Assembly (NCBI GenBank): GCA_045110315.1
Contig: JBGCFY010000046.1
Span: 49,016-113,015 of the forward strand
Direction of reading: 5' to 3'
Length of the DNA: 64,000 nucleotides
Source of the DNA: Saprospiraceae bacterium
GTDB lineage: Bacteria > Bacteroidota > Bacteroidia > Chitinophagales > Saprospiraceae
The notes below the pieces were generated by a model. The model was not told the DNA's origin, did not search any database, and worked only from the letters and a program-made list of their open reading frames with translations. The position numbers and the translations under genes were made by a program. Of this stretch, positions 11,292-28,049 are shown piece after piece; within the stretch, counting starts at the first letter, position 1, and each line of letters opens with the position of its first letter.

Positions 11292-11379
11292 TAGTAGTGT
11301 TTTAAATTTTAAAATACGTTGTATGAATCTAACAGTTTAAAACTAAAGTTGTTGAGTTAAAACTGCAACTTTGGCATAG

Positions 11380-13104: not shown

Positions 13105-13165
13105 GAAAATTTGTTTTGATGATTTTCTAGCAATGAAGTTATTTAATAATTCGATGACAAGTAAA

Positions 13166-13209
13166 TACTAAGACAAATTTTTTTTACCATTAAATTGTGT
13201 TAGTACTTA
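13166..13209. repeat. palindromic intergenic repeat, copy A (GTACTAAG family)
   Basis: tactaagacaaattttttttaccattaaAttgtgttagtactta is identical to 39823-39866 except at one base. The arms AATACTAAGACAA and TTGTGTTAGTACT form an imperfect 13-bp stem. It lies between the aat stop and the M23 peptidase start. Confidence 0.8.
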
Positions 13210-13331
13210 ACTACAGAACGTTTAAAGTAACGGCGCTATTTCTCTATTGTTTAAGAATCTATTGTTTAAGAAAAGAATTGAAATATTCCTAACTGAAAGT
13301 TTATTATATTGAAATTTGAGTACCAATACAA

Positions 13332-14051
13332 CTAAGCATTTTTCCAGATGAGCTTAGGATCGAAACGAGGTCCCCAACTTTCTTGGACGGTTTCTACTAT
13401 CGCATTATTAGCCATTATTTTCAGAAAGTCTTTTCTAGGAATACCGCGTCCACCCAAAGTTTCTAGGTGTTGCGTTTCTTGTTGGCAATCTACGAGTTCG
13501 TAGCCCCAAGCATCTAGGTGTTTCACCAAGCTAATAAAACCAAATTTAGAAGCATTGCTAACTTTTGCGAACATCGATTCCCCGTAGAAACATTTCCCTA
13601 GTGCTACGCCATAAAGCCCTCCGACTAATGCTCCATCTTGCCAAACTTCAACGGAATGTGCAAAGCCTAAATCAAATAGACGCGTATAGGCATCAATCAT
13701 ATCCGTTGAGATCCAAGTGCTACCATTTTGTCCTTTCCGCGGCTGTTGTTGACAGGAACGAATGACACCATCAAAATCTTGATCAAAACTTAATTCCAGC
13801 TTTTTTTGATTGAAATAAGGACGCATACTCTTCGAAATTTTGAGCTCGTCGGGAAAGACTACAAAACGGGGATCAGGACTCCACCAGAGAATTGGATCTT
13901 CGGGATTGAACCAAGGGAAAAGACCAATTCTGTACGCTAGTAATAAGCGATCGACAGATAAATCACCTCCTACAGCAAGAATACCATCCTCGTTGGCTAG
14001 TTCAGGATGTGGAAAGGTAAGTTCATTTTCTGTTAACCAAAATACAGGCAC
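13332..14051 (-). CDS. aat: leucyl/phenylalanyl-tRNA--protein transferase
   Basis: 239 aa. Shows GILAVGGDLSVDRLLLAYRIGLFPWFNPEDPILWWSPDPR ... GGLYGVALGKCFYGESMF, typical of L/F-transferase. Confidence 0.9.
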   Translation of the reverse strand: MPVFWLTENELTFPHPELANEDGILAVGGDLSVDRLLLAYRIGLFPWFNPEDPILWWSPDPRFVVFPDELKISKSMRPYFNQKKLELSFDQDFDGVIRSCQQQPRKGQNGSTWISTDMIDAYTRLFDLGFAHSVEVWQDGALVGGLYGVALGKCFYGESMFAKVSNASKFGFISLVKHLDAWGYELVDCQQETQHLETLGGRGIPRKDFLKIMANNAIVETVQESWGPRFDPKLIWKNA

Positions 14052-14238
14052 TTCGGGTATTTATTTTAGGTGTTAAACTAGCACATGTTACAAGCTCTCG
14101 GTATCAAGTTGTACGAATTGCGCTTGATGTGAAGTAGTGCAGTAACACAACTATTATTTTTTTTAGACGTATCGTAGAATTGTGACCAGAATTTCTTTGG
14201 TAAAGAAAAGTCTCTTTGAACAACTTCATTCATAAAAA

Positions 14239-14268
14239 TACAGCAATGACCTTTTGACCATTGCTGTA
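14239..14268 (-). terminator. intrinsic terminator downstream of clpS
   Basis: TACAGCAATG (14239-14248) pairs perfectly (10 bp) with CATTGCTGTA (14259-14268). On the minus strand it is followed by TTTTTAT. It lies 31 nt after the clpS stop. Confidence 0.65.
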
Positions 14269-14298
14269 TTGAGCGTAATTCTCTAGAAAAAGTTAAGT

Positions 14299-14598
14299 TT
14301 ACTTAGTCGTTTCAATCACTGCGGATAGACCTCTATCCACTAAAGCATCCTTAAAAGGTTTCAGAACTAATTTTGGAGCGGTCTTCACTGTTGCTTTGCC
14401 TTTAAAATGAATGAGTAAAGAAAGCTGTTCTGCTTGTTCAGAACTATAGTTTAGGATTTCAACGAAAGATTGGATAACCCAATCAAAAGTATTAACCTCA
14501 TCATTATAAACAATTAGCTGCGACTGTATTCCAACATCCGTTGATGCTTCCATCAGGAGCACTTCTTCTATATCTTCTGTAGTTTGGTTATAGCCCAT
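14299..14598 (-). CDS. clpS: ATP-dependent Clp protease adaptor ClpS
   Basis: 99 aa. LIVYNDEVNTFDWVIQSFVEILNYSSEQAEQLSLLIHFKGKATV matches the ClpS core. Confidence 0.9.
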   Translation of the reverse strand: MGYNQTTEDIEEVLLMEASTDVGIQSQLIVYNDEVNTFDWVIQSFVEILNYSSEQAEQLSLLIHFKGKATVKTAPKLVLKPFKDALVDRGLSAVIETTK

Positions 14599-14810
14599 TA
14601 TAAAATATTTTTATTATAAATACATTAAATACATTGTAACATAAATTTATTTGCTTTTTGAATATGTCTTTTCGCCTCACTCTTTGTCACGTCCTCACCT
14701 TGATCGCTATGGCTATCAGATTCCGGGCATTTCTCGATTGACACTAAAACTCATTATCCAAAATTTTAACTAACTTATGTTGCAGCATATTAAACTTAGT
14801 AATATATAAA

Positions 14811-15281
14811 CTAGTTTAGGCGCGATAAAGTTTCCTTTACTTTAGAAAAATCTGGTAAATCGCCCGCAGATTCTAATACTTCTGCATACTGTACCATTCC
14901 TTCTTTGTCGATCACAAAAGCTGCTCGTTTTGAGACCCCTTTCATATCCAAAACAAAATCTTCGTATAAAGCGCCGTAAGCACGAGATACATTTTTGTTA
15001 AAATCGGATAAAAGTGGAAAATTATATTTTTCTGTTTCTTTAAATTTCTCTAGTGTAAATAAGGAATCTACAGATACGGCTAGAATTTGAGCATCCAATT
15101 CTTCATAAGTTCCAATATCGTCTCTCATCGTACAGAGCTCCGTGGTACATACTCCCGTAAATGCTAGAGGAAAAAATAACAATACGACATTTTTACCTTT
15201 ATAATTTTCTAAAGAAACTTCAGAAGTATCCGAAGCTCGAAGGGTGAAATTAGGGGCTTTATCTCCAATCTTAATAATCAT
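14811..15281 (-). CDS. peroxiredoxin (AhpC/TSA family)
   Basis: 156 aa with the block KNVVLLFFPLAFTGVCTTELCTMRD. Confidence 0.85.
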   Translation of the reverse strand: MIIKIGDKAPNFTLRASDTSEVSLENYKGKNVVLLFFPLAFTGVCTTELCTMRDDIGTYEELDAQILAVSVDSLFTLEKFKETEKYNFPLLSDFNKNVSRAYGALYEDFVLDMKGVSKRAAFVIDKEGMVQYAEVLESAGDLPDFSKVKETLSRLN

Positions 15282-15584
15282 TTTATTGCTAGTGTTTATA
15301 GGGTGAAAAGTTCATTTTGACCGGCAGCACCGTGGCAAAATGAAGTAAAATCTTGTTGCTAAGAAATTTTCGCTTAAGCTAGGAGTTATTTTAAACTCGT
15401 CTCCATTCTGTAAAATTCTAGAAATTCGAAAAAGCCTAAGTTTTCAAAGATATGGAATTGCGTTGAATTTTTAATTGATGTACGCTCAAAATTGATCGCA
15501 AAAATGTAAATTTTAGCTATATTCGGCGAATATGACGAAAATCATACTTTTTTTAAACTCATTTTCTACTCTTTTCCTACTCGA

Positions 15585-16499
15585 ATGAAGGCAAAACAGC
15601 GTGCTTACCTAGAACTACATTTCGCCGTACTTTTGTTTGGTTTGACCGCTATTCTGGGAGACCTTATTCATCTATCTGCTTTATTGATCGTATGGTGGCG
15701 CGTTTTGATTACCTGTATCAGTCTCTTTTTTTTGATTCGCTTTGGCAAATTCTTAAGAGAAATTCCCCGTAAGATTGTGCTCCAATTTATGGGAATTGGC
15801 GTTTTAGTAGCGCTCCATTGGCTTTGTTTTTTTGGTGCTGTTAAGTATTCTAATGCCTCGATCTGTTTGGTTTGTATGGCAACAACTTCTTTTTTCACTT
15901 CCTTTTTAGAGCCCTTATTACTACAACAACGCATCAAATGGTACGAAATCCTTTTGGGTTTATTGATTATTCCTGGGATGGTTTTGGTGGTAAACAATAC
16001 AGAACTTTCGATGATGGCGGGCATTGCCGTTGGGCTACTTTCCGCTTTTCTCGCGGCAGTTTTTTCTATTCTCAATAAAAAAATGGTTGATCAAGCGGAC
16101 CCGATGAGTATTACTTTTTTAGAATTAGGTAGTGCTTGGTTGTTTCTTAGCTTGCTCTTACCTTTTTACTTCTATTATAATCCCGAAGCAAGCTTTCTAC
16201 CTAATCAAACTGACCTCGGCTACTTAGCGATCTTAGCTCTGTTGTGTACGACGCTTGCTTACGTACTTTCTCTCCGAGCGCTAAAACATATTTCTGCTTT
16301 CGCTTCTAACTTGACCATTAATCTAGAACCCGTTTACGGAATTTTACTCGCTTACTTTATCCTACAAGAAAACGAAGAATTAAGTAATGGTTTTTACTAC
16401 GGTGTCTGCATCATTTTGATCGCCGTTTTTTCCTATCCCTTTTTGACAAGACTATTTGAAAATAAAGATATGGTAGGAAGCAACGAAGAAATTTCTTAA
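15585..16499 (+). CDS. EamA/DMT-family transporter
   Basis: 304 aa with about 10 predicted TM helices in two similar halves, typical of the drug/metabolite transporter superfamily. Confidence 0.75.
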   Translation: MKAKQRAYLELHFAVLLFGLTAILGDLIHLSALLIVWWRVLITCISLFFLIRFGKFLREIPRKIVLQFMGIGVLVALHWLCFFGAVKYSNASICLVCMATTSFFTSFLEPLLLQQRIKWYEILLGLLIIPGMVLVVNNTELSMMAGIAVGLLSAFLAAVFSILNKKMVDQADPMSITFLELGSAWLFLSLLLPFYFYYNPEASFLPNQTDLGYLAILALLCTTLAYVLSLRALKHISAFASNLTINLEPVYGILLAYFILQENEELSNGFYYGVCIILIAVFSYPFLTRLFENKDMVGSNEEIS

Positions 16500-16536
16500 G
16501 TGCTTTCTCTCCGAGCAATTCTTTTATACTAGGAAG

Positions 16537-16567
16537 TTGTTTAACGTAGGCTTTTCTCCTATTTTTG
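16537..16567 (+). promoter_or_regulatory. candidate Bacteroidota sigma-A promoter
   Basis: TTG at 16537-16539, then a 20-nt spacer, then TATTTTTG (16560-16567; TAnnTTTG -7 consensus). It lies 16 nt upstream of ATG 16584. Confidence 0.4.
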
Positions 16568-16583
16568 CAAAAAGAAATCATTT

Positions 16584-17219
16584 ATGAATTTTGCCTTAAA
16601 AAAGATTAATGCTTATTGCGAAGCTCACACTACCAAACAATCCGAGGTATTGTACGAGCTAGAACGAGAAACCTATCTCAAAACGCTCGCGCCACAAATG
16701 TTATCAGGACATTTGCAAGGACAGTTTTTGAGCTTTATCAGTCAAATGATTCAACCGAAGTGTATTCTTGAAATTGGTACTTTTACCGGTTACTCCGCAA
16801 TTGCTTTAGCCAAAGGACTTGCCCCGGATGGTATGTTGCATACGATTGAAGCCAACGAAGAGCTTGCACATATTAGCAATAAATACATCAAAAAAGCAGG
16901 GCTGAGCGATCGCATTACAACTTACTGTACAGATGCTAAAGTACTCATCAAAACATTAGACTTGACTTTTGATTTGGTCTTTATTGATGCAGGTAAAAAT
17001 GACTATGAACTTTACTACGACTTGGTTTTTGATAAAGTAAAATCGGGCGGCTATCTCTTAGCAGACAACGTACTTTGGAGTGGAAAGGTGGTACAAGCTA
17101 CGCACGATAAAGACACACAAACGATCGATCGATTCAACAAAAAGATACAGCAAGATCCGCGAGTAGAAAATGTTTTATTACCGATTAGAGATGGATTAAT
17201 TTTAGTGCGTAAGCGATAA
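16584..17219 (+). CDS. class I SAM-dependent O-methyltransferase (family 3, caffeoyl-CoA OMT-like)
   Basis: 211 aa. SAM motif ILEIGTFTGYSAIALAKGL, plus FIDAGKNDY and LLADNVLWSGKV. Confidence 0.85.
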   Translation: MNFALKKINAYCEAHTTKQSEVLYELERETYLKTLAPQMLSGHLQGQFLSFISQMIQPKCILEIGTFTGYSAIALAKGLAPDGMLHTIEANEELAHISNKYIKKAGLSDRITTYCTDAKVLIKTLDLTFDLVFIDAGKNDYELYYDLVFDKVKSGGYLLADNVLWSGKVVQATHDKDTQTIDRFNKKIQQDPRVENVLLPIRDGLILVRKR

Positions 17220-17240
17220 GCAAGCACTTTTTTATTTGTT

Positions 17241-18287
17241 TTGCCCCTGAATTATTTGCTTATGAAAAATGTGCAACAATGGCTCCTTCCCCTGGCCAAA
17301 CCTTTCTCGTTGAATCATTTCATTCACTTGAGTGGTCAACGTTTATTGTTGCCTTTTTACCACAGTATTAAAGCTAAAAGTAAACTACCGCATCTCGAAA
17401 ACCTGTATCCGCTCCGCACCAAAGAACAGTTTGAAGCAGATTTAGATTATCTTTTGGAACATTACGAGGCGATCAGTCTTTCAGAGTTAGTTGCTTGCAT
17501 CGAAGAGGATAAGGAAGTTCGAAAAAATAGTTTTTTCCTTTCTTTTGACGATGGCTTACGAGCTTGCTACGATCTCATTGCTCCTATTTTAAAACGCAAA
17601 GGTGTTCCTGCTTGCTTTTTTTTAAACTCGGCTTTTGTAGATAATCAAAAATTATTTTATCGCTATAAAGTGAGTCTACTCCTTGATCAAATCAATCACA
17701 AACCACCGAGTAAAAGCTTGACCAAAAAGTTAGAAACAATCTTGCAAAAAAGTGAGTTAGAAGGCTGGACGATGCGCGAACAAATCCTTTCCATCAACTA
17801 TCAGCAAAAAGAGCTTATCGAAGAATTAGCACAATTGCTAAAAGTAGACTTTAAAAAATTTTTAGTACAAGAACAACCATACCTAACCACTACTCAAATT
17901 CAAGCAATGGAAAAAGATGGTTTTCAGTTTGGTGCGCACAGCATTGATCATCCCTTATACGAAGATCTCAGTCCATTGGATCAAATTGTACAGACGAAGG
18001 AAAGCCTACATTTTATTGAAACGCATTGCCGACAAGCGATTCGTAGTTTTGCATTTCCTTTTACCGACGATGGTGTTTCTGCTTCTTTTTTTGATAAAAT
18101 GCACCAAGAACAGATTCTTGATATTTCTTTTGGAACCGCAGGTTTGAAAAAAGATAGTTGCCCATTTCATTTTCAACGACTACCGATGGAAGTTGGAGCT
18201 TACAGCGCAGCAGAAATTATAAAGAGCACCTATGCTTACTATTTAGCGAAAGCGCCACTAGGAAAAAACTTAGTACTCCGGTCGTAA
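17241..18287 (+). CDS. polysaccharide deacetylase (NodB homology domain)
   Basis: Shows LSFDDGLRACYD (the DD motif) and GAHSIDHP (the His motif). The ORF-track start is TTG 17241; an alternative ATG is at 17262. Confidence 0.8.
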   Translation: MPLNYLLMKNVQQWLLPLAKPFSLNHFIHLSGQRLLLPFYHSIKAKSKLPHLENLYPLRTKEQFEADLDYLLEHYEAISLSELVACIEEDKEVRKNSFFLSFDDGLRACYDLIAPILKRKGVPACFFLNSAFVDNQKLFYRYKVSLLLDQINHKPPSKSLTKKLETILQKSELEGWTMREQILSINYQQKELIEELAQLLKVDFKKFLVQEQPYLTTTQIQAMEKDGFQFGAHSIDHPLYEDLSPLDQIVQTKESLHFIETHCRQAIRSFAFPFTDDGVSASFFDKMHQEQILDISFGTAGLKKDSCPFHFQRLPMEVGAYSAAEIIKSTYAYYLAKAPLGKNLVLRS

Positions 18288-18291
18288 AGGT

Positions 18292-19389
18292 TTAAGTAAA
18301 AACCCAGTCGCCATCGCCATCTTGTATTACGGGAGTCTCTACCAAATACTTTTCTAGGCTTTCCGCAATACCGAAGGTTTTTTCTATTTCTTTTTGGTAA
18401 TAAAAAAGCGTTTTCATCTTAGTCATGCATTCACAAATTTCTTTTTGAAAACAAACAAAACTTTCTGCTTGCTGTTCAATCAAGATTTCAAGAATACTAT
18501 CAACGACTAGAGGCAACACTTCCTTTTCAAAGTAAACGTAAGGTAACTTCAACTGATGATCCCGATTCGTAAAGAATAATACGGCAACCAATTTTTCTCC
18601 TTTCCAAAGCTTGTAGACTAAATTTTTAAAAACAGTAGCCACACTAGAAAAGTAATAGCGAGCGGCTATCTCTTTGTCCTTGGGCTGCGTGGACAACCAC
18701 GGATATGCTAAAATCCAATTGAGTGTTGCGCGATTACGACCGATTAATTCCTGAGTAGCGTGCGCAGTAATCCAGCTGCCCGTTGGTTCGTCAATTTTAG
18801 TGACGCTTTCTATACGAAGAGACTCTTGCTTGCGAGAGCGACGCCACCAAGTTTTTTTTGCGCGGTACCAACTCGCATTGAGGAGAAAATCTACCCCGCG
18901 CAAAAGTCCCGTAAAGGGTACAAGGCTCGCTTTTTTCTGAGGTAATATTTTGTGGAATTTGAAAGCTAGGAAACAACGTAAACCTACTATTTTGCGAAAG
19001 CTAAAACCACCCATTTTTTCAAGGATCGTTGTGGAATGCGCTGGTAAATCATCAAATAGCATTCGGCCTTCCCACAGTTGTATCGCTCGTAGCAAAAGCG
19101 GTAATGCGATTCGTTTACCTTTTTCAGGATGTCGCCACCAACAACTATTCCAAGCAACGGGTATTGATTGATCTTGTGCTAAGTGATCTGGCAAACAGCC
19201 AACGTAGCTGATCACGTCCCCCGTTTTATCCGTCGCTACTAGTAAAACGATAGCTTCCGGTTTTGCCCGGGGATTGTGGTACTGAGATAAGGCACGCAAT
19301 GGCGTAATGGGAAACGAATGGGTTTGCTGGAAAGCAGCGCTGGTCAACAGCCCTTTCAACTCCTTAAGCTTAAATTCGTGGATTTGCAT
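18292..19389 (-). CDS. hypothetical protein, possibly GNAT-fold; last gene of the carrier-protein operon
   Basis: 365 aa with an ATG start, 36 nt downstream of the carrier-protein gene. The N-terminal third resembles a GNAT core (VLLVATDKTGDVISYVGCLPD...GKRIALPLLLRAIQLWEGRMLFDDL...ILEKMGGFSF). I recognise no confident family. Confidence 0.5.
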   Translation of the reverse strand: MQIHEFKLKELKGLLTSAAFQQTHSFPITPLRALSQYHNPRAKPEAIVLLVATDKTGDVISYVGCLPDHLAQDQSIPVAWNSCWWRHPEKGKRIALPLLLRAIQLWEGRMLFDDLPAHSTTILEKMGGFSFRKIVGLRCFLAFKFHKILPQKKASLVPFTGLLRGVDFLLNASWYRAKKTWWRRSRKQESLRIESVTKIDEPTGSWITAHATQELIGRNRATLNWILAYPWLSTQPKDKEIAARYYFSSVATVFKNLVYKLWKGEKLVAVLFFTNRDHQLKLPYVYFEKEVLPLVVDSILEILIEQQAESFVCFQKEICECMTKMKTLFYYQKEIEKTFGIAESLEKYLVETPVIQDGDGDWVFT

Positions 19390-19425
19390 GAATTGAGGTA
19401 TTCCTGAAAGGTAGACTTACAACGT

Positions 19426-19665
19426 TTAGGACAATTGACTTTGGATCCCTTTACAAATATCGCCTACCGTTTCAAAACCAATCATTTCCATTAAATTGAA
19501 TTTGATTTCAAAATGACTTTCGATAGCATTAATAAGTATTGCGTGCCGCAACGAATCCCATGCTTCAATATCATCTGGGCGAGTCGTTTCTTCGATCGTC
19601 ATTTTCTCGTTCGCAAAGACTTGTCGAAAGATGGTTTGTACGCTTACAAATATTTCTGTTGCCAT
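19426..19665 (-). CDS. acyl/peptidyl carrier protein
   Basis: 79 aa. Phosphopantetheine-attachment context is DIEAWDSLRHAILINAIESHF (the DSL Ser). The size and four-helix pattern fit a carrier protein. Confidence 0.8.
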   Translation of the reverse strand: MATEIFVSVQTIFRQVFANEKMTIEETTRPDDIEAWDSLRHAILINAIESHFEIKFNLMEMIGFETVGDICKGIQSQLS

Positions 19666-19671
19666 AAGTTT

Positions 19672-20424
19672 TTATTGATATCCGAGTAGCCAATATACAT
19701 CAAAGTTTCCGTATATTTTGAATCCGAGTTTTCGGTAAACACCTTCTCCCATTTTCGTAGCCTGTAAAGTTGCCAAATCGCAATCTTCATTTTTGGCGGC
19801 CGTTAAGGCGTAATGTGTCAAGGCAGAAGAAATACCCCGATTGCGAAAAGTTTCTAACGTAGAAACGGCATAAATTCCTACTGTATTATCTTTCACGAAG
19901 CTCAATAAGATAGACGCCGCTTGGTCAGCAACTTTAGCTAAGTAAAAACGCGTGGCTTTTGAATGCTGATAAACAGTCTGAAACATATTTTCTTCGATGG
20001 GTCTACTTTTGAAGAGCGTTTCATTGGCGAGCGCCACCCAACGCTTTAAATCATCGCGTGTAGTTACTTCTTCGAGTGTCGCCGTACTCTTTGGTGCAGT
20101 AGATGCTAAATCTGCTAAGCGCAAACACATACCTCGCCATTCCGCCAATTGCCTAAATCCATAATTCCCGAAGTGTTGATTAACCGCTAACAAATCGTTT
20201 TGTCGCAAACGAATCCAAAATGCGGGAATGATGCTTTGTCTAATCCCTTCGACGATGGTTGGGAAGTCCGCGCTGAGCACATCCGAAGCAAAGATCATCG
20301 TTGGCCAAGAGGAAGGTCGGCAATCCACCCAATTGAAGTTTGGGCTCATTTGTAAAGTACAATTTCCGACGGTAGCAAGTTCTTGGTAGAGCTGTGTCAG
20401 ATTTTTTTCATTTCTATCAATCAA
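19672..20424 (-). CDS. GNAT-family acyltransferase
   Basis: C-terminal GNAT core IYAVSTLETFRNRGISSALTHYALTAAK...LQATKMGEGVYRKLGF. The TTG start at 20424 overlaps the upstream stop by 8 nt; the alternative ATG is at 20349. Confidence 0.7.
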   Translation of the reverse strand: MIDRNEKNLTQLYQELATVGNCTLQMSPNFNWVDCRPSSWPTMIFASDVLSADFPTIVEGIRQSIIPAFWIRLRQNDLLAVNQHFGNYGFRQLAEWRGMCLRLADLASTAPKSTATLEEVTTRDDLKRWVALANETLFKSRPIEENMFQTVYQHSKATRFYLAKVADQAASILLSFVKDNTVGIYAVSTLETFRNRGISSALTHYALTAAKNEDCDLATLQATKMGEGVYRKLGFKIYGNFDVYWLLGYQ

Positions 20425-21931
20425 TTCCTTTTTTACGTGTAGTTTCTCTGAGAACGATTTTTCTCAAGGCTTGTCGATCAACTTTCCCGCTGATATTTTG
20501 GGGCAACGTCGCTAACTTTGTAATACTTGTAGGTAATAAATACGGTGGTAGCTTTTCTTTCAGATATGCTAAGATCACCTCACTCGTATAACTTGTTTGT
20601 GCGCTGACCAAATGAATTTCAAAAATATCATTTTCGTTTTTTAGAACGATGGCAACAACTTGATCTGTGTTTGTAAATTTTCTAGTTAGTGTTTCAAGTT
20701 CTCCTAATTCTACTTTATATCCTTGTATTTTATATTGATAATCTTTACGACCACAACTATAATAAATTCCATGTTCATCTTGAAAAGCTAAATCGCCACT
20801 GCGATAAAACCTTTTTATAGTACCTTGTATTTCTCTTTCAAAAAATACACTTGCGTTCTTCTCTGGCAATTTCCAATATCCATTCATCACATGATCTCCC
20901 GAAAAACACAATTCTCCAATTCCCCCTTGTTCCACTACCTGACGATTTTCATCAACCAAAATTGTTTGTGTATTTTTCCACGGGCGACCAAAAGCTAAGA
21001 TTCCTTGATAAGATTTATATTGCCCCGCATTTTTTTCCAATTCATAAGATACACAAGCCATCGTAGTTTCGCAAGGTCCTGATATATTAACAATTCGTGC
21101 GTTAGGAATACAAGCGGCCCACGCCGTAGCCAAAGTTACATAAAAAGCTTCTCCACCCAAAATGGAATACCTCAATTTTGGAAGATTTATTTGACTAAAA
21201 TAGGGTTTTAAGAGATTTAAGGTGGAAGGTACCATCGCTGCGAAACTAACCTTATGCTCTTGCATCACCTTGACCGCCGAAAGGTATTTAATTTTTGTTT
21301 CCGGAACCGTACAAACCGCTGCGCCAATACACCAAGCAGGCAAATAAGAAAGCAAAGACATATCAAAAGTCAAATCAAACATTTGCAAAAAGCGATCTTC
21401 TTCGGTGATTTCGTAACCCAAAGCAAAAAAAGCATCTAAACTACAATTGAGATTGCGCAATGTATAAGGAACGCCCTTAGGCGTTCCAGTACTTCCCGAA
21501 GTGAAGAGCATACAGATAATTTGTTCGGGAGTCGGTGATTCAAAATCTAAGGACAATGCTGTTGCTGGCAAGTTTGAGCTATCCAAAATCTTCCAAGCGG
21601 CAGCACATTCCCTTGGTTTTATCTCACTTGCCAAAACAAAAACACTATCTACCTGCTGCATTACCGTAATGTTTCGATCCAAAGGACTTTTAGTGCTCAA
21701 GGGCACAAACGCATAGCCTTCCATCCAAACGGCGATAATACTTGCGTAAGTTTGTAGATCATCTTGGGCTAAAATGCCAATAAATTGAGTGTCGGGGCGT
21801 TCCTTTTGGAGCAAGACGCGTACTTTGGAGACTTCTTCTCCTAACGAAGCGTAAGTATAAGCTTCATTTTTAAGATAGAATGCTATTTTTGTAGCACGTT
21901 GAAGAATGGACGTTTTTATTTTAGCGAGCAT
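20417..21931 (-). CDS. stand-alone adenylation enzyme (NRPS A-domain / DltA-like, AMP-dependent ligase superfamily)
   Basis: Core motifs are YTYASLGEEV (A1), GYAFVPLSTKSP (A2), LFTSGSTGTPKGV (A3), FDMS (A4), YRSGDLA (A7), GRKDYQYKIQGYKVELGELE (A8) and PQNISGKVDR (A10). The ORF track extends to 22054 from a TTG. ATG 21929-21931 (MLAKIK...) removes an implausible hydrophobic leader and the overlap with the divergent gene. Confidence 0.85.
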   Translation of the reverse strand: MLAKIKTSILQRATKIAFYLKNEAYTYASLGEEVSKVRVLLQKERPDTQFIGILAQDDLQTYASIIAVWMEGYAFVPLSTKSPLDRNITVMQQVDSVFVLASEIKPRECAAAWKILDSSNLPATALSLDFESPTPEQIICMLFTSGSTGTPKGVPYTLRNLNCSLDAFFALGYEITEEDRFLQMFDLTFDMSLLSYLPAWCIGAAVCTVPETKIKYLSAVKVMQEHKVSFAAMVPSTLNLLKPYFSQINLPKLRYSILGGEAFYVTLATAWAACIPNARIVNISGPCETTMACVSYELEKNAGQYKSYQGILAFGRPWKNTQTILVDENRQVVEQGGIGELCFSGDHVMNGYWKLPEKNASVFFEREIQGTIKRFYRSGDLAFQDEHGIYYSCGRKDYQYKIQGYKVELGELETLTRKFTNTDQVVAIVLKNENDIFEIHLVSAQTSYTSEVILAYLKEKLPPYLLPTSITKLATLPQNISGKVDRQALRKIVLRETTRKKGID

Positions 21932-22018
21932 GAAATTGCCAGTTGAAAAAATTATAATACTCAAAAGCACAATCGCTTCAAGACAAAGATACGATAAGCA
22001 AAACAAAGGAACTATATT

Positions 22019-22978
22019 TTGACCCATAAGGAAGCCTATATTACATTTTGTCAATCACAGCCCGAGTTGCCTATTTTTTCGCAACCCTGGTATTTGGACG
22101 CCGTTTGCGGAGCAGATAACTGGGAGGTCATTTTAGTCCGACGCGGAAGTCAAATTATAGCGAGTTGGCCTTATTATGTCAAACAAAAAGCTATTTTCAC
22201 CTATATTACGTTGCCTTATCTGACAAAAACGATGGGCCCTTACCTGATTCCCGCTTTCCGACACCTCAAACAGGAACATAAAGTCTTCGCAGAATTAATC
22301 ACACAGTTACCGAAAGTTGATTTTTTTAATCAAGACTTCCATGCAAGCATTACCAATTGGTTGCCTTTCAAATGGGCTGGCTTTCAGCAAACGACCAACT
22401 ACAGTTACGTCATTGATCAACTCCAAGACTTAGATCAAGTTTTTGCGGGATTTTCTACCGACTACCGAAATAATAAAATTAAGAAAGCACAGCAGCAAGT
22501 TAAAATAGTAACGGATAGAAGTTTACAAGAACTGTACGACGTCAGCAAGATGAGCTTTGATCGACAGGATTTGACCTATTTGCTTTCTTTTGATTTTTTA
22601 CAACAATTAGACGAGGCACTAGTAAAGCACCAAGCAAGAAAAATGTTTTTTGCGGTAGACGCAGCCGGTCGCATTCACGCAGTTTTGTACTTGATTTGGG
22701 ATCAACATACAAGTTACTATTTGATTGCGGGAGATGATCCTGCTCTCCGACATAGTGGCGCCAGCATCTTATTGGTTTGGGAGGCGATTCAATTTAGCAG
22801 TCGTACCTTAGGCTTAGCGAATTTTGATTTTGTGGGAAGTATGATTCCTGCGATTGAGCGAGTGCGGCGACAATTTGGTGCGCAGCAAAAAGCATTTTTT
22901 AATTTGCAAAAATACTACTCGCCTAGCTTCAAATTCTTAGAAAGTCTAAAAGCTTTTTTTAGCAAAAGTTATTATTGA
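22019..22978 (+). CDS. FemAB-related / BioF2-like GNAT-fold acyltransferase
   Basis: 319 aa with a TTG start. FSQPWYLDAV... and MFFAVDAAGRIHAVLYLIWDQHTSYYLIAGDDPALRHSGASILLVWEAIQFSSRTLGLANFDFVGS resemble the C-terminal lobe of FemAB-family / PEP-CTERM-associated FemAB-related proteins. Confidence 0.65.
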   Translation: MTHKEAYITFCQSQPELPIFSQPWYLDAVCGADNWEVILVRRGSQIIASWPYYVKQKAIFTYITLPYLTKTMGPYLIPAFRHLKQEHKVFAELITQLPKVDFFNQDFHASITNWLPFKWAGFQQTTNYSYVIDQLQDLDQVFAGFSTDYRNNKIKKAQQQVKIVTDRSLQELYDVSKMSFDRQDLTYLLSFDFLQQLDEALVKHQARKMFFAVDAAGRIHAVLYLIWDQHTSYYLIAGDDPALRHSGASILLVWEAIQFSSRTLGLANFDFVGSMIPAIERVRRQFGAQQKAFFNLQKYYSPSFKFLESLKAFFSKSYY

Positions 22979-22985
22979 AGTTGTT

Positions 22986-24821
22986 TTAAAAAAGACTGAC
23001 GTAACCAAAGTGAATCTTTGCCGCTCGAAAATCAAAAGGATTGCCTTGCTGCTTGCCAAGCGCATAACTCAGTCCAAAAACACCAACTTTTGTTTCGAAA
23101 GTAATACCGACTCCGAGTCCTAAAGGTTGATCGAAATTGCGCCGATCCGGTGTGATATTTTCTAAATAAGCATAATCACCAAAAAGATAAAAGTAAGAAT
23201 TTTGACCAATGATAAAGCGGTACTCCAGGGTACTCACGACATAATTGGTACTAAAAATAGATTCTTCGTCAAAACCGCGCAACAAGCGATTCCCACCCAA
23301 CCGAAATTGTTCGTTTTGATAAATAGGATTTTCTGAAATAATAAAACCTGCCCGCAACGATGTCTTCACGACGCCACGCCGTCCTACCGGAAAATAATGT
23401 GCAACTTCTCCCATTAGTTTATACTGAAAGGTACGCAATTCGAGGCTATCGTAGAGACTTTCGTTGATTTCAACGATGGTCGCATTCTTCTTAATATTTT
23501 TAATACCTGCTGCACCGCGGAGAAAAAGATGCCAACCTTTTCTTGGATTAAACCGATAATCTAATTTCTGTAAATTATATTCCAAGCCAAAAGAAGAATT
23601 CCGCACATCTAAGGTTCTTGGTAAAAATCCTGCTCGAATCCGCGTCTCCTCTATTTGTAAAAGCGAAGAGGAAGTATTATTCCAAAATGCTTTAACGTAA
23701 TTTCCCCCTTCAAAAATGTATTGAAAACCCAAATCCGTTTCAACATCCAAAAAAGTAGAATCTCTTTTGTACAAACTAAATTTTAAATCTAGTCCGAAAG
23801 GAAGATCCAAGACGTAAGGATACAATACTTGCAAATCCAATTCCTGCGTCCCCGGACTAAGCTGTTGAAACTCCGCAAACAACCGTTCGCCCAAGCCAAA
23901 TTGATTATACAAATCCGCGTTAAACGTTCCCGTAATCAGCAACCGACGTTGTAAAGCAGGATTCGTCGGATCACTATTTGTATTCGGCAGCACGCCCAAT
24001 AGAAAGTCAAATCGACTGGATTTTTTTCTTGTCAGGAATAAGTTGATGGTTGCTTTATCTCCTTTAAATGTAACCGTAGCATCTTTCTTTTCCTGTAAAA
24101 AAGCCAGCTCGCGAATCCGCGTCCGAATCTTCTTGATTTTGGCTTTGCTGTAAAGTGTACCTTGCTTTAAGCCCAAGTAATTTTCCAAGTATTGATCTGA
24201 GATTTTCACATCTCCAATTAAGTTAATTCCATCGATGACAATCAGGCGATTTTTCTCCATCTTGAGCGATGCCTTAATTTCGTCTTCTCCAATCTCGATA
24301 TCTTCCAAATACACAGAAGCAAAAGGATAGCCATTATTCTCTGCGTAAACCAACAAAGCTTCTTGGATTTTCCGCAATTCTAGATAATGAAAAGGCTTTT
24401 GTTCAAACAAACGTTCTTTGAAACCAACCCGATCCAGAAAAGCTTCTTCCACCGCAGTACTTTTTAGCTTTGCCCATTTATAAGCTGCGCCAACGTGTAA
24501 GCGTGCCTCAAATAACTTTCCATTACGCGTCAAGCGATCAACGGATGCTGCCAAATATGATTGCGCTTGAAGTTGTTGTAAAAGTTCATTTAAGTTTTTT
24601 TTCAAACTTAAACTATCCGTGAAAGTAGTTTTGAATTCGAACTCATTATCTTGAAGAAAAGTAGCTGCTTGGTCGAGGACTTCGATTTTCAATTCAAAAT
24701 CCGTTGGTGCGGTCTGCGCGTTAGTTTTTACGCAAAGCACAAACAAGAGGAAAAATAATTTCCAAATGGAAAGCTTCCAAAAAGCCGCAACCCTCACCTG
24801 TTTTTGGCAATTCAAAGCCAT
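22986..24821 (-). CDS. Omp85-family outer-membrane protein (BamA/TamA-like, surface antigen D15)
   Basis: 611 aa. Has a signal sequence, a POTRA-like N-terminal third, and a beta-barrel ending ...KIHFGYVSLF. Confidence 0.7.
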   Translation of the reverse strand: MALNCQKQVRVAAFWKLSIWKLFFLLFVLCVKTNAQTAPTDFELKIEVLDQAATFLQDNEFEFKTTFTDSLSLKKNLNELLQQLQAQSYLAASVDRLTRNGKLFEARLHVGAAYKWAKLKSTAVEEAFLDRVGFKERLFEQKPFHYLELRKIQEALLVYAENNGYPFASVYLEDIEIGEDEIKASLKMEKNRLIVIDGINLIGDVKISDQYLENYLGLKQGTLYSKAKIKKIRTRIRELAFLQEKKDATVTFKGDKATINLFLTRKKSSRFDFLLGVLPNTNSDPTNPALQRRLLITGTFNADLYNQFGLGERLFAEFQQLSPGTQELDLQVLYPYVLDLPFGLDLKFSLYKRDSTFLDVETDLGFQYIFEGGNYVKAFWNNTSSSLLQIEETRIRAGFLPRTLDVRNSSFGLEYNLQKLDYRFNPRKGWHLFLRGAAGIKNIKKNATIVEINESLYDSLELRTFQYKLMGEVAHYFPVGRRGVVKTSLRAGFIISENPIYQNEQFRLGGNRLLRGFDEESIFSTNYVVSTLEYRFIIGQNSYFYLFGDYAYLENITPDRRNFDQPLGLGVGITFETKVGVFGLSYALGKQQGNPFDFRAAKIHFGYVSLF

Positions 24822-24918
24822 ATTATTTATTTATCTTTGACCGCTGTATGGGTAAAAAACGTAAAGATCAAAAAAATATTTAATTTCAAGAAAAATAATT
24901 CTCTTAAGCAATCGTAAC

Positions 24919-26055
24919 ATGTCAGGCATTTATATTCACATTCCATTCTGTAAACAAGCTTGCCACTATTGCAATTTCCACTTTTCTACTTCCTTAAAAT
25001 ATCGTGCGGACGTCGTTACGGCGATTGTGCAAGAAATAGCCCAGCGACACGATTACCTCGAAGATAAACAGATCAGTTCGGTTTATTTTGGTGGTGGCAC
25101 GCCGTCTTTACTAACGACCGATGAGCTACAAAGTATTTTCACGCAACTCCATCATTATTTTCAAATTGCGCCCAACGCAGAAATTACACTCGAAGCAAAT
25201 CCTGATGACTTAAATCTTGCCAGTTTAACCGCCTTAAAGGCAACGCCCATCAATCGGTTGAGTATCGGTATTCAATCCTTTACGGAAGAAGATTTGCAGT
25301 TTATGAATCGGGCACATTCGGCACAGGAAGCAGAAGTTTGCATTGAATTAGCACGACAAGCAGGATTTGATAAGCTGAGCATTGACCTAATTTATGGTAC
25401 CCCAACGTTGACCGATGCACAGTGGGAAAGCAATTTAGCTCGGGTCTTTGCACAGCGAGTCCCACACATTTCCTGTTATTGCTTGACGGTAGAACCCAAT
25501 ACTGCCTTGGATCATTTTGTAAAAACAGGGAAAGCAGCCCCCGTGGACGAAGAGAAATCAACTCGTCATTTTGAAATACTGCTACGAGCTATGGAAGCAC
25601 ATGGATACGTGCAGTACGAAATTTCCAATTTTGCCTTGCCCGATCATTATGCCCAGCACAATTCTAATTATTGGCTAAATGTACCTTATTTAGGCTTAGG
25701 ACCTTCCGCACATTCATTTGATGGCAATAGCCGACAATGGAACATTGCTAATAATGCAAAGTACCGGAAAGCTATCCAACATCCCGGAAAAAATCAACTC
25801 TTTGAACGAGAAGTTTTACAGGCTGCTGATCGCTATAATGAATATATTTTGACAAGCCTACGAACCATTTGGGGCTGTCGATTGGTGACGATCCAAAACA
25901 TTGATTTTAAGTTTGCGACTTATTTCCTTGAGAAAATAAAAAGCTATTTGGACCAAGCTCTCATTCTCGAAGAAGATGACACTTATCGCTTGAGTACATC
26001 TGGAAAATTACTAGCCGATCGAATTGCTATGGAATTATTCTGGGAAGAAGCCTAA
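24919..26055 (+). CDS. hemW: radical SAM heme chaperone HemW (HemN-like)
   Basis: GIYIHIPFCKQACHYCNF (CxxxCxxC), GGGTPS, and the HemN C-terminal domain pattern. 378 aa. Confidence 0.9.
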   Translation: MSGIYIHIPFCKQACHYCNFHFSTSLKYRADVVTAIVQEIAQRHDYLEDKQISSVYFGGGTPSLLTTDELQSIFTQLHHYFQIAPNAEITLEANPDDLNLASLTALKATPINRLSIGIQSFTEEDLQFMNRAHSAQEAEVCIELARQAGFDKLSIDLIYGTPTLTDAQWESNLARVFAQRVPHISCYCLTVEPNTALDHFVKTGKAAPVDEEKSTRHFEILLRAMEAHGYVQYEISNFALPDHYAQHNSNYWLNVPYLGLGPSAHSFDGNSRQWNIANNAKYRKAIQHPGKNQLFEREVLQAADRYNEYILTSLRTIWGCRLVTIQNIDFKFATYFLEKIKSYLDQALILEEDDTYRLSTSGKLLADRIAMELFWEEA

Positions 26056-26353
26056 GTTAATTTAAGGTCTTTTTGTAAATATTACTTATAGAAACTGTTC
26101 AAAAAGTCTTCTTCCGCACTCCTTACCTTGTTACTAGTGCTTTCTTATATGTGTGTCGACTACAATAAATGTAATCAAAATAATTACATTTTATAAATTA
26201 TTCCGTCTCCCTTCCTTTGATAGAAGTCAATAAACACGTGACTAAAATTTCAATCATTCGGGCCTAAATCATTTTCGCAGCTCAAAATAAAACAATTTTT
26301 AAGCCTATAAATCAATTAATTACGCTTAAAACAAACAATTTGTTGATCAAAAC

Positions 26354-26384
26354 TTGACACGTAAACACTTTTTGTTTATATTTG
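26354..26384 (+). promoter_or_regulatory. candidate Bacteroidota sigma-A promoter
   Basis: TTG at 26354-26356, then a 20-nt spacer, then TATATTTG (26377-26384). It lies 10 nt upstream of ATG 26395, which implies a very short leader. Confidence 0.4.
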
Positions 26385-26394
26385 TATCAAATAA

Positions 26395-27207
26395 ATGACA
26401 CTTATCATGGATCTTCAAATTTTAACAAGCGCAAAAGGAACAAAAGTAGTTACTGCTTCTAACCTTTATTTGGTTTTACAATTACCTCATGCTCAATATT
26501 TGAAAACTACCAAAAAATGGTTAAATGATGTTTATGAGTTTAAAGATGGTATTCGCAAGCCAGAGAAGCTAAAAGATTATGCTTTACGCAAACAAGATGT
26601 AAGTATTTTGCAAGACTTCTACTTATCTATTGAGTTGGCAAAAATGATTACACTTACTTCTCAGAGTAAACAAAAGCAGAAATACGCAAAATGGCTTTTG
26701 TCACTAGAAGACAAAGTCGAACACGCCGAGTTATTGACTAAGGATCAAATTCTAACTGTATTGGAATTGGCAAAAGTAATGGGTTCCATGTCTTGCCAAA
26801 ATACCGTTGAGCAACAGCATTATCAGAAGTATGAAACCACTAAAGGTAAAGTTTACGATTGGTGGAAATACCGTTCTACGCTAATCGGTTATACGACAGA
26901 AAAGTTGCGGAGCAAAATGGCACAACTAGGCAAGCATCATAAAGGAAAAAGCACCGATCAAATGTTGATGGTCTTGGACAAATATGAAATGATTAGAACG
27001 GCGGTGATTGATTTATTTATGTCAAGAGGCAAAAGTGAACGTTTTGCTAAAAATCTAGGAGATTTAGCCAAGGAATTTGCAAAAGAGTTGAAGGTGGAGG
27101 TTTGGGATGATCGAAAAGCGCAAAATGCTTTTACGGATACGCTCAATGGTGAGTTGGTAAATGAAATTAAATCCTTTAAAAAAGGCGCTTATCTCAGTCT
27201 GTGGTAA
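26395..27207 (+). CDS. hypothetical protein with phage antirepressor-like (AntA/Rha-like) N-terminal region
   Basis: GTKVVTASNLYLVLQLPHAQYLKTTKKWLNDVYEFKDG ... DFYLSIELAKMITLTSQSKQKQKYAKWLLSLE follows the pattern I associate with AntA-type antirepressor N-domains. The C-terminal half is unassigned. Confidence 0.45.
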   Translation: MTLIMDLQILTSAKGTKVVTASNLYLVLQLPHAQYLKTTKKWLNDVYEFKDGIRKPEKLKDYALRKQDVSILQDFYLSIELAKMITLTSQSKQKQKYAKWLLSLEDKVEHAELLTKDQILTVLELAKVMGSMSCQNTVEQQHYQKYETTKGKVYDWWKYRSTLIGYTTEKLRSKMAQLGKHHKGKSTDQMLMVLDKYEMIRTAVIDLFMSRGKSERFAKNLGDLAKEFAKELKVEVWDDRKAQNAFTDTLNGELVNEIKSFKKGAYLSLW

Positions 27208-27458
27208 GGTAGTTTTTCTTTGAGCAGTTTTCTAAAAATGAATCCGATTTGAGTGGAGTGTTTTAACTCTTAGTCACTAATCTATAAGACAATGGAATGC
27301 GTTAAATTAATATAATTATTCCGATGAGGCTTTCATCGCGTCATCGTACTACTTGCTATTATCAGTTGAAGTAGTTTCATTTCGTTTAAAACAGTTCGAC
27401 AAGTTGAGTATAAAAAATATTATAGTGTAGTTTTATATTTCCTCATAGTGTTAATGAT

Positions 27459-27492
27459 GCCAGTTCCCCGCAAGAACTGGCACTTTTTTTTT
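27459..27492 (+). terminator. intrinsic terminator
   Basis: GCCAGTTC (27459-27466) pairs with GAACTGGC (27474-27481) across a 7-nt loop. It is followed by ac+TTTTTTTTT. It lies 250 nt downstream of the nearest + strand stop (27207). Confidence 0.7.
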
Positions 27493-27554
27493 ACTAAGTT
27501 CATAAATCTTCTTATTATTAAGGCTGAAAGTATTATTGATCCGAAAAAAGACCA

Positions 27555-28049
27555 ATGAAAGAAAGTAACCCTAGTACGCTAAATGAGTGGTATCAAATGA
27601 TTTTGAGTGAACCTAGTTATCTGATGGCGATTGCCATTGGTGGAGCAATTTTGATACTTTTGATTGCTCTAAATGTGAAAGGGAATAATAAAAAAGCAAT
27701 TTTAAAGAAGCACGCACCTAATTTTGTATTTGAAGCCTTTCAGTTGGCACCTTTAGGAAGAGATGCTTATTTTAAAATTAAAAACATCGGAGAACCTGCT
27801 TTTGTCAATTTCGTTGGCATTAAACAACGGGACGACATCAAAATAACCAATGCCAATACAACCAATTTTGAAGTTACTACCGATAAAATTTATGGCATTT
27901 TTTGTGAAATACAAGGCAACCAAAAAATCAAAGCTGATTTTGAAGTGGAAATAGATTTTAAAGATCGTTTAGGCAATCAGTATCGACAAGTCTTTGCAGT
28001 AGACGAAGCCTTGAACAAAGGAAAAGTTAAGCTCATCAACTACGCATAA
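27555..28049 (+). CDS. hypothetical single-pass membrane protein
   Basis: 164 aa. One TM helix (YLMAIAIGGAILILLIALNV) followed by a beta-rich ~110-aa domain. I recognise no family. Confidence 0.5.
   Translation: MKESNPSTLNEWYQMILSEPSYLMAIAIGGAILILLIALNVKGNNKKAILKKHAPNFVFEAFQLAPLGRDAYFKIKNIGEPAFVNFVGIKQRDDIKITNANTTNFEVTTDKIYGIFCEIQGNQKIKADFEVEIDFKDRLGNQYRQVFAVDEALNKGKVKLINYA

Follow-up and report, generated by a model that had tools for sequence, protein, structure and literature searches.

The 64,000-nucleotide stretch of Saprospiraceae bacterium DNA analysed here (contig JBGCFY010000046.1, positions 49,016 to 113,015; referred to as the window) encodes a cassette of six genes for an adenylating enzyme (A enzyme), a GNAT protein of 250 amino acids (aa), a small carrier protein, a tandem-GNAT protein of 365 aa (U365), a CE4/NodB-type deacetylase (NodB) and a FemAB-like protein (Fem). 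The cassette was interpreted as an elaborated relative of the Wbp/Vim pathway which would swap the N-acetyl group of an amino sugar for an amino acid in the cytoplasm, and this interpretation is given an even chance of being right. A narrower proposal is put forward tentatively and with more doubt, namely that U365 N-aminoacylates an amino sugar, bound to a nucleotide or a lipid and deacetylated by NodB, from an aminoacyl-S-carrier that the stand-alone A enzyme has loaded. This would be the first carrier-dependent route to aminoacylated lipopolysaccharide (LPS) or surface sugars in Bacteroidota.

Four of the genes were found on the minus strand in the order A enzyme (20417-21931; 504 aa from the ATG, with the open reading frame (ORF) open up to a TTG at 22054), GNAT (19672-20424; TTG start), carrier protein (19426-19665; 79 aa) and U365 (18292-19389). 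The GNAT gene overlaps the A gene by 8 nt, through which its translation is predicted to be coupled to that of the A gene, and gaps of 6 nt and 36 nt separate GNAT from the carrier and the carrier from U365. NodB (17241-18287), on the plus strand, converges on U365 with the two stop codons 4 nt apart. Fem (22019-22978), also on the plus strand, diverges from the A gene across an intergenic region of 87 nt (21932-22018) which is presumed to hold promoters. The genes, coordinates, strands and spacings given in an earlier note, which had been made from the letters of this DNA and its translated ORFs, all proved correct in the window translations. An Rfam scan of window positions 15000-25000 produced no element, and no riboswitch or T-box naming the amino acid, which had been looked for, was among its results. 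None of the six proteins showed a hydrophobic segment (19-residue Kyte-Doolittle windows, none above 1.6) or a signal-peptide-like N-terminus. The absence of hydrophobic segments places the chemistry probably in the cytoplasm, which would probably fit work on a nucleotide- or lipid-linked sugar precursor, unlike Dlt and the secreted CE4 enzymes. The transfer at the envelope surface pictured in the earlier note was for this reason abandoned in favour of a probable cytoplasmic chemistry on sugar precursors.

The A enzyme is, by its motifs and model scores, an amino-acid-activating enzyme of the non-ribosomal peptide synthetase (NRPS) A-domain/DltA type and no fatty-acyl ligase. It matched PF00501 (AMP-binding) at 180.6 bits, and the best of its 101 NCBIfam matches was TIGR01733 (AA-adenyl-dom) at 275.6 bits, which is under the cutoff of 317.4. 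The DltA models NF003417 and TIGR01734 gave 211.6 bits (cutoff 476) and 202 bits (cutoff 559.85), respectively, and fatty-acyl ligase models gave at most 154.5 bits, in line with the earlier note, which had set the enzyme apart from the fatty-acyl type. Sequence matches in the PDB were NRPS A domains (8xjz, LgrA, GrsA), AlmE (4oxi, a strong match) and DltA. The NRPS/DltA-type motifs that had been read from the letters (LFTSGSTGTPKGV, FDMS, YRSGDLA, GRKDYQYKIQGYKVELGE and GKVDR) were present in the translation, and the core motifs A3 (TSGSTGxPKG), A7 (Y[RK]TGD), A8 (GRxDxQxKIRGxRIELGEIE) and the catalytic Lys of A10 were recognised. When 50 cassette A enzymes were aligned to GrsA 234-452, a reference checked against 1amu, the Asp of FDMS fell on GrsA Asp235 and was Asp in 50/50 relatives, as expected of the A4 Asp that the earlier note had taken it to be. 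The A10 Lys motif (GKxD) was kept in 49/50 relatives. The specificity code of the window enzyme was D-M-L-A-I-G-I-M-A-(K). Codes varied by lineage (DVQKLSHID, DATKIGHVG, DATQHGIIT, DAHKLGVIN and DMLAIGIMA), and such lineage-specific codes are expected if the amino-acid donor varies. Compared with Stachelhaus codes, DVQKLSHID is tentatively taken to resemble a Ser code (DVWHLSLIDK) and DATKIGHVG to resemble Asn/Asp codes (DATKVGEVGK, DLTKVGHIGK), and the DMLAIGIMA of the window is presumed, as tentatively, to describe a small hydrophobic pocket that is weakly Gly-like.

The carrier protein matched PF00550 (PP-binding) at 21.7 bits (cutoff 20.8) and acyl carrier protein (ACP) subfamily models at E=5e-8. 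Its phosphopantetheine site is predicted to be Ser38 within WDSL, the serine of the DSL motif noted earlier. Among 48 family members, W36 and S38 were conserved in 100% and D37 in 94%. The isoelectric point (pI) of the carrier was 4.5 compared with about 9 for U365. The 250-aa GNAT matched the Acetyltransf_1/7/9/10 models at 29-30 bits over residues 144-237 and contains RNRGIS as its predicted coenzyme A (CoA)/pantetheine-binding loop. An alignment of the GNAT family showed no conserved stretch. The A enzyme and the GNAT were joined into a single 753-aa fusion in a Saprospiraceae metagenome-assembled genome (MAG; locus L009, 7474-9735), and the same fusion was present in L010 (5755-8059) with a frameshift inside the A part.

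No match to U365 was found in Pfam, NCBIfam or PDB sequences. The protein is identical to AB8G15_04790 of a Saprospiraceae MAG. In its AlphaFold model (pLDDT 92.4, pTM 0.90), a long helix connects two GNAT lobes. A Foldseek search with the model gave 197 matches to PDB structures (E<=1e-3), headed by tandem GNATs with TM 0.4-0.53 and including an uncharacterised Bacillus anthracis acetyltransferase, FemX, the MprF C-domain, Eis and NMT. Conserved residues were Cys83, Trp85 and an invariant C-terminal QDGDGD..F. A single-sequence search returned 66 clusters of relatives and a profile search 172, all of them "hypothetical" with a few annotated as GNAT, and the named relatives were Bacteroidota. 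When genomes were scanned, relatives turned up in 259 GTDB species; the best 80 loci of that scan were fetched, and these were all from Bacteroidota except two MAGs labelled Chlorobiota. Judged by its modelled fold, U365 is an unnamed tandem-GNAT family (FemX/MprF/Eis-like) that was seen almost only in Bacteroidota. The possibility that U365 is a divergent Fem/VimA was rejected, as hhalign against Fem profiles gave a probability of 1% and kinship was undetected beyond the fold.

NodB matched PF01522 (Polysacc_deac_1) at 59.4 bits against a cutoff of 23.1, with weak matches to PgaB/IcaB/PdaA/PgdA/NodB models. The Asp-Asp and His-x-x-x-His metal-binding motifs of CE4 enzymes were present, and the invariant residues in 30 relatives were D103-D104, H233/H237 and F270-x-F272-P273, with S234 near-invariant. 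It is predicted to be a metal-dependent, cytoplasmic de-N-acetylase lacking a signal peptide. Fem matched PF13480 (Acetyltransf_6) at 48.9 bits, and a PDB search with its sequence found nothing. Its model (pLDDT 94.2) has two GNAT lobes, and the closest folds were Sbb17/Sba18, which were solved with streptothrisamine, and FemX (TM 0.67-0.76); MshD was also among the fold matches. Sbb17 and Sba18 are aminoacyl-tRNA-dependent peptide synthases, and their relative Orf11 aminoacylates streptothrisamine from Gly-tRNA (PMC12945691). TIGR03019 was matched by 12/38 Fem-family members (best E = 5.4e-8) and by the window Fem not at all. The window Fem showed 22% identity (E=9e-13) to the Fem of L082, where the gene lies in a cluster with a true vimE, and 45% identity to the Fem of a Wzx/Wzy locus labelled Bacillota (L084). 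Fem is modelled as a FemX-fold protein that may be called VimA-like through its fold and its relatives. The model of Fem bears out the FemAB-like assignment of the earlier note, and the model of U365 gives a tandem-GNAT fold to the protein that the note had listed as unknown.

For conservation, the ORFs of 84 loci were clustered and locus classes were counted where flanks were complete. The 38 complete loci with an A gene (38/38) contained GNAT in 33, the carrier in at least 29, NodB in 35, Fem in 32 and the VimE-family gene (DUF7033) in 23. The 13 complete loci without A had neither GNAT nor carrier, all had NodB, and Fem and DUF7033 were found in 3 and 1 of them, respectively. GNAT followed A in 48 loci and U365 directly followed the carrier in 48. 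With gene starts taken as those of the longest ORFs, the approximate median gaps over 44-48 loci were -4 nt from A to GNAT, +1 nt from GNAT to the carrier and -1 nt from the carrier to U365, and those elsewhere were -1 nt from NodB to A (37 loci), -1 nt from NodB to U365 and -8 nt from DUF7033 to Fem. Overall, the order A>GNAT>carrier>U365, with genes that overlap, was seen in more than 50 loci. In L006 and L009, A-GNAT-carrier-U365 had neither Fem nor NodB within 10 kb. These four genes form the tightest unit, and the six genes are not a fixed operon. The conserved six-gene neighbourhood expected in the earlier note was thus upheld insofar as the genes are co-conserved, but not as a fixed unit, given that NodB and U365 also occur by themselves and that in this lineage Fem pre-exists beside an O-methyltransferase gene. 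The arrangement recurs across several Bacteroidota orders, which argues that it is not due to chance. The full cassette, with a VimE-like gene, Fem, NodB, A, GNAT, carrier and U365, was also present in the cultured type strain Mariniphaga anaerophila DSM 26910 (L066 4298-11086). Neither a fatty-acyl affiliation of the A enzyme with a non-equivalent FDMS Asp nor a lack of co-conservation, the computational outcomes that the earlier note had named as evidence against its proposal, was observed.

Loci without A carried an adjacent NodB>U365 pair amid unrelated housekeeping genes. A conserved partner upstream of the stand-alone pair was looked for and rejected, as the genes there were ribD-, tyrS-, purD-, gltA- and dprA-like by inspection. 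In a neighbour-joining tree the U365 of NodB-only loci formed one clade apart from the U365 of A-containing loci, and the conserved U365 residues were common to both clades.

The history of the cassette could be followed at one syntenic Saprospiraceae site next to genes for an EamA/DMT membrane transporter and an O-methyltransferase (OMT), for which three states were found. In the first, EamA>OMT>Fem is followed by a gene for Omp85 on the opposite strand (L085-L087), and OMT overlaps the start of Fem by 8 nt with nothing between (block 7347-8951). In the second, the order is EamA>OMT>NodB>U365>Fem (L054, L064), with OMT>NodB>U365>Fem contiguous in L064. In the third, that of the window, NodB is followed by an inverted U365-carrier-GNAT-A block before Fem. 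The three states at a single site indicate that the donor module, U365 and NodB were inserted beside a pre-existing OMT-Fem pair. The products of these two older genes may work together.

In the window, the OMT gene (16584-17219, plus strand; Methyltransf_3, PF01596, 179 bits) encodes a possible partner of Fem whose membership in the cassette is uncertain. The EamA gene (15585-16499, plus strand; PF00892, 107 bits) lies upstream of OMT, a position that is syntenic in L004, L005, L054, L064, L079 and L087; its membership in the cassette is speculative, as is a role of its product as flippase. EamA>OMT>Fem is a conserved Saprospiraceae block (window 15585-17219). With these two genes included, all the families assigned in the earlier note were matched by hidden Markov models (AMP-binding, GNAT, PP-binding, Acetyltransf_6, Polysacc_deac_1, Methyltransf_3 and EamA).

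The link to the Wbp/Vim pathway came through the relatives of the cassette. The Vim pathway is known from Porphyromonas gingivalis and Tannerella forsythia, where VimE (CE4) takes off the 2-N-acetyl group of a sugar and VimA adds Ser or Gly to give the linking sugar of the T9SS (type IX secretion system), and where VimF is a GT4 glycosyltransferase (PMC7468200). Bacteroidota anchor T9SS cargo through a linking sugar that bears an amino acid; Vim is the only known pathway to it, and its product is an N-aminoacyl amino sugar in amide linkage to the C-termini of the cargo. VimA is N-acetyltransferase-like and matches TIGR03019, and exchange of vimA alters the amino acid, with the donor left unnamed (PMC7468200); the amino-acid donor of VimA was not identified in the literature searched. 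In Prevotella intermedia, an N-alanyl-deoxyhexose is made by an unknown pathway (PMC11969387). Linking sugars vary between species and further pathways are expected (PMC7468200, PMC11969387). Of the DUF7033 proteins of related cassettes, 19/19 tested matched NF053580 (the VimE family). The VimE of L082 (Bacteroidales) was the sole one over the cutoff (598.8 bits against 440), and Prolixibacteraceae VimE-like proteins gave 150-177 bits against that cutoff. In L082, rpsL-rpsG-fusA on one strand are followed by Fem, U365, NodB, VimE, GT4 and GT2 genes, which apart from NodB are all on the other strand. L084 (5767-16954; labelled Mangrovibacillus sp. Mu-81, Bacillota) is a Wzx/Wzy locus with Fem, sulfotransferase, WbpA-like, WbpB-like, VimE-like and GT4 genes, which suggests inter-phylum transfer of Vim-type genes. 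The 64-kb window itself contained no VimE-type deacetylase (NF053580), and no Wbp gene (WbpA/B/E/D) or VimF-type glycosyltransferase gene adjoined its cassette; these were seen in relatives only. The earlier note had compared the cassette with Dlt, Alm and PEP-CTERM systems and concluded that there was no known transferase type. That conclusion overlooked the Wbp/Vim pathway, in whose genes the relatives are embedded.

As a separate observation, window positions 10830-15281 contain two Bcp/AhpC-type peroxiredoxin genes with an M23 peptidase gene, aat (which encodes Leu/Phe-tRNA protein transferase) and clpS between them, and L064 and L087 show synteny over this block. The P. gingivalis operon bcp-recA-vimA-vimE-vimF also starts with a bcp gene, and the likeness to the Bcp genes of the window may be coincidence.

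The proposed sequence of reactions would begin with NodB, which would de-N-acetylate an amino sugar, such as a related HexNAc or a 2,3-diacetamido uronic acid, that is probably linked to a nucleotide or to undecaprenyl. The A enzyme would adenylate an alpha-amino acid and load it as thioester onto Ser38 of the carrier, and U365 would then move the aminoacyl group from the carrier to the freed sugar amine to form an amide. The 250-aa GNAT would most likely N-acetylate the amino acid at its alpha-amine, either on the carrier or after transfer. Fem would aminoacylate a sugar amine too, probably from aminoacyl-tRNA. In cassettes with a VimE-like gene, the VimE-like deacetylase would be paired with Fem and NodB with U365, and the two pairs could serve both N-acetyl groups of a 2,3-diacetamido sugar or two sugars. 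The product would enter LPS or a surface glycan and would be a candidate for the T9SS sortase attachment sugar, or for a decoration of it; the organism of the window encodes a T9SS cargo gene. The data show which genes are present, their families and modelled folds, the amino-acid type of the A enzyme, the co-conservation and fusions, and the physical linkage to vim genes in relatives, whereas the acceptor sugar, the carrier-using transferase, what the GNAT does and what becomes of the product are inferred.

Compared with known systems, the cassette is closest to Wbp/Vim in belonging to the same phylum and in its proposed order of steps, with deacetylation of a sugar N-acetyl group followed by N-aminoacylation in the cytoplasm. 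The window Fem may be a counterpart of VimA, and L082 has U365 and NodB inside a Fem-vimE-GT4 cluster. The Vim pathway differs in having no adenylating enzyme, carrier, stand-alone GNAT, U365 or PF01522-type NodB, and the cassette encodes a predicted dedicated aminoacyl-S-carrier, where no donor is named for Vim. The PEP-CTERM quartet (TIGR03098 ligase, ACP, TIGR03019 FemAB and TIGR03006 deacetylase) has the same four protein classes, and its FemAB member has been speculated to make an amino-acid-modified sugar for sortase-type protein attachment (PMC7468200). However, the A enzyme scored 149.1 bits against the TIGR03098 cutoff of 592.35, and the window Fem and NodB had no match to TIGR03019 and TIGR03006, with weak matches in 12/38 and 4/30 relatives, respectively. 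In addition, no exosortase was found among the window ORFs scanned or read (180 aa or longer), the cassette ligase is of the amino-acid type, and U365 and the 250-aa GNAT have no counterpart in the quartet.

DltABCD, which D-alanylates teichoic acids, resembles the proposed cassette in that a stand-alone A enzyme charges its own small carrier with the amino acid that modifies the envelope. The MBOAT protein DltB and DltD were not found when window ORFs of 180 aa or more were scanned or read, and the A enzyme stayed below the DltA cutoff. The transferases of the cassette are soluble and GNAT-fold and would form an amide on a sugar amine in the cytoplasm, in contrast to the Dlt ester made outside. 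AlmEFG, which modifies Vibrio cholerae lipid A with glycine, likewise combines an A enzyme, a carrier and a dedicated transferase, and AlmE (4oxi) was a strong sequence match. AlmG is an LPLAT-family membrane acyltransferase and the Alm acceptor is a lipid A acyl-chain hydroxyl. By contrast, no PF01553-type protein was found in the window, and LPLAT was found in L003 and L052 only. As the earlier note had noted, MBOAT, LPLAT, condensation domain and exosortase were all absent among the same set of window ORFs.

The beta-lysine of streptothricin is reportedly attached via a stand-alone NRPS A/peptidyl carrier protein (PCP) route (Maruyama and colleagues, 2012). In the streptothricin family (Orf11/Sbb17; PMC12945691), the amine of an amino sugar is aminoacylated by a FemX-fold enzyme from aminoacyl-tRNA, and the cassette seems to encode both routes from the donor, aminoacyl-tRNA with a FemX-fold enzyme and carrier thioester. 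These are Streptomyces antibiotic pathways, however, and their transfer from PCP is performed by a condensation domain or an A domain and not by a tandem GNAT. Two further parallels are known. In Nod factor synthesis, deacetylation by NodB is followed by N-acylation by NodA, which does not have a GNAT fold, from NodF, a carrier of the fatty acids that NodE makes. In mycothiol synthesis, MshB is LmbE-type, MshC is a CysRS homologue and MshD is a tandem GNAT. In both, a GlcNAc unit is de-N-acetylated, after which the Nod pathway N-acylates it from a dedicated carrier and the mycothiol pathway ligates an amino acid and has a tandem-GNAT step, but membership of the cassette proteins in either at the level of sequence was not found.

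Several points weigh against an elaborated Wbp/Vim relative. The window cassette has no adjoining VimE-family, Wbp or glycosyltransferase gene, and the Vim link is drawn from relatives. The Prolixibacteraceae VimE-like proteins that scored under the cutoff may act on another sugar. Most NodB+U365 pairs lie among housekeeping genes with no glycan genes nearby. The window Fem does not reach TIGR03019 and is called VimA-like on its fold and relatives. The likeness of U365 to known transferases is one of modelled fold (TM about 0.5), and U365 is a putative docking partner of the carrier. If the GNAT does cap the alpha-amine, the product cannot be the sortase nucleophile. Finally, LPLAT and Acetyltransf_5 genes in place of NodB in L003 and L052 point to a lipid. 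Five other explanations were weighed, and all were less consistent with the linkage pattern than a carrier-dependent Wbp/Vim relative.

In the first, which is unlikely, the A enzyme and the carrier feed Fem, and U365 is an ordinary N-acyltransferase that uses acyl- or acetyl-CoA (or aminoacyl-tRNA) to re-acylate the amine freed by NodB. The missing donor of VimA and the presence of Fem in 32/38 complete A-containing loci are in its favour, and the A-less U365 clade, which shares all conserved residues, indicates that U365 can work without a dedicated carrier. It is countered by the occurrence of Fem without A or carrier at the same synteny (L085-L087), by the fold of Fem, which is nearest to aminoacyl-tRNA-dependent enzymes, by the carrier gene abutting U365 (median gap -1 nt) and by L006 and L009, where A-GNAT-carrier-U365 has no Fem up to 10 kb away.

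The A-GNAT fusion, which places acetylation at the loading step, and the position of NodB directly before A in 37 loci would suit a protect/deprotect scheme, in which the amino acid is N-acetylated by the GNAT while on the carrier, moved in that form by U365 and later stripped of the same acetyl group by NodB to expose its amine. The substrate of NodB would then be the amino acid and not the sugar. Such schemes have precedents in the gamma-Glu protection of butirosin by BtrH/BtrG and in the formyl protection of ArnA/ArnD, where ArnD is a NodB-family protein. This scheme was considered quite improbable, as at least 13 complete NodB+U365 loci without GNAT, A or carrier show a role of NodB independent of GNAT acetylation, and the motifs of NodB are those of a generic sugar de-N-acetylase.

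Of similarly low probability is a soluble small compound, either an aminoacyl-glucosamine conjugate in the manner of mycothiol and bacillithiol or a small natural product. VimE-family linkage in 23/38 complete loci, the vimE-GT4 cluster of L082 and the Fem relatives in a Wzx/Wzy locus speak for a surface glycan instead, and the variable A codes fit surface diversity better than a conserved cofactor. For a soluble compound, it can be said that all the proteins are predicted to be cytoplasmic, that most loci have no glycosyltransferase, flippase or polymerase, and that a deacetylase with amino-acid activation and a tandem GNAT mirrors MshB/MshC/MshD, of which MshD is a fold match of Fem.

An aminolipid or membrane lipid as acceptor, that is, the head group of an ornithine, lysine or glycine lipid or lipid A, in the way of AlmEFG or MprF, was considered very unlikely. 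The loci L003 and L052, from a Flavobacteriales/Vicingaceae-like lineage, have no NodB and carry directly upstream, co-directionally, genes for an N-acyltransferase of the Acetyltransf_5 type (GlsA/GlsB- or OlsA/OlsB-like) and for LPLAT (PF19576, 213.6 bits). U365 has a basic pI of about 9 and an interdomain helix rich in Trp, Arg and Lys, and MprF domains were among its fold matches. However, this arrangement was seen in one syntenic lineage only, and sugar deacetylases and Vim-type genes are found elsewhere. In addition, makers of Ser-Gly lipid (Bacteroides, Porphyromonas, Flavobacterium) were not among the named U365 relatives. The observation covers L003 5746-7489 and 20826-21077 together with L052, and an MBOAT gene lies about 10 kb downstream in L003. 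The serine-adding step of Ser-Gly lipid (flavolipin), a candidate prompted by L003, was tried and rejected: it concerned one lineage, its known producers were missing from the named relatives, and an A domain with the alpha-amine Asp activates an incoming amino acid and not a lipid carboxylate. Least probable of all is a peptidoglycan precursor receiving a Fem-type side chain or cross-bridge after GlcNAc/MurNAc deacetylation, for which the FemX-like folds of Fem and U365, weak PgdA/PdaA matches of NodB relatives and the JGI annotation of some Fem relatives as lipid II:glycine glycyltransferase may be cited, whereas peptidoglycan deacetylases are extracytoplasmic and NodB lacks a signal peptide, mur or fts genes are not linked, and the VimE and GT4 linkage points to LPS-type glycans.

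Elsewhere in the window, a 419-aa protein (6389-7648, minus strand) is of extremely low complexity, with a signal-peptide-like start, (WNNG)n repeats and a long tail rich in Ser, Arg, Thr and Asn, and a 352-aa protein (3227-4285, minus strand) contains an unbroken poly-Lys/Arg run, KKRKKKRKKKKKKKKSK. The stretch 26001-28000 has a low GC content (0.334 compared with about 0.39) and includes a 270-aa ORF (26395-27207) and a 164-aa ORF of no assigned function; this stretch may be foreign DNA.

Already known are the logic of deacetylation followed by aminoacylation and the families of Fem/VimA and VimE. The A-carrier-GNAT-U365-NodB module has no system entry in Pfam or NCBIfam and was not found in the literature searched. 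The cassette offers a concrete donor mechanism, made up of A enzyme, carrier and tandem GNAT, that is physically tied to vim genes in relatives, and it encodes NRPS-type and Fem-type aminoacylation side by side. U365 is predicted to be a new transferase family present in at least 259 species. The occurrence of the cassette in the cultured M. anaerophila DSM 26910 makes biochemistry and genetics feasible. If the acceptor is not a sugar, the cassette would still be a conserved carrier-protein-dependent aminoacylation system without a characterised counterpart. If the proposed role is true, the lineage-specific A codes would explain the diversity of amino acids on the T9SS linking sugars or on neighbouring sugars.

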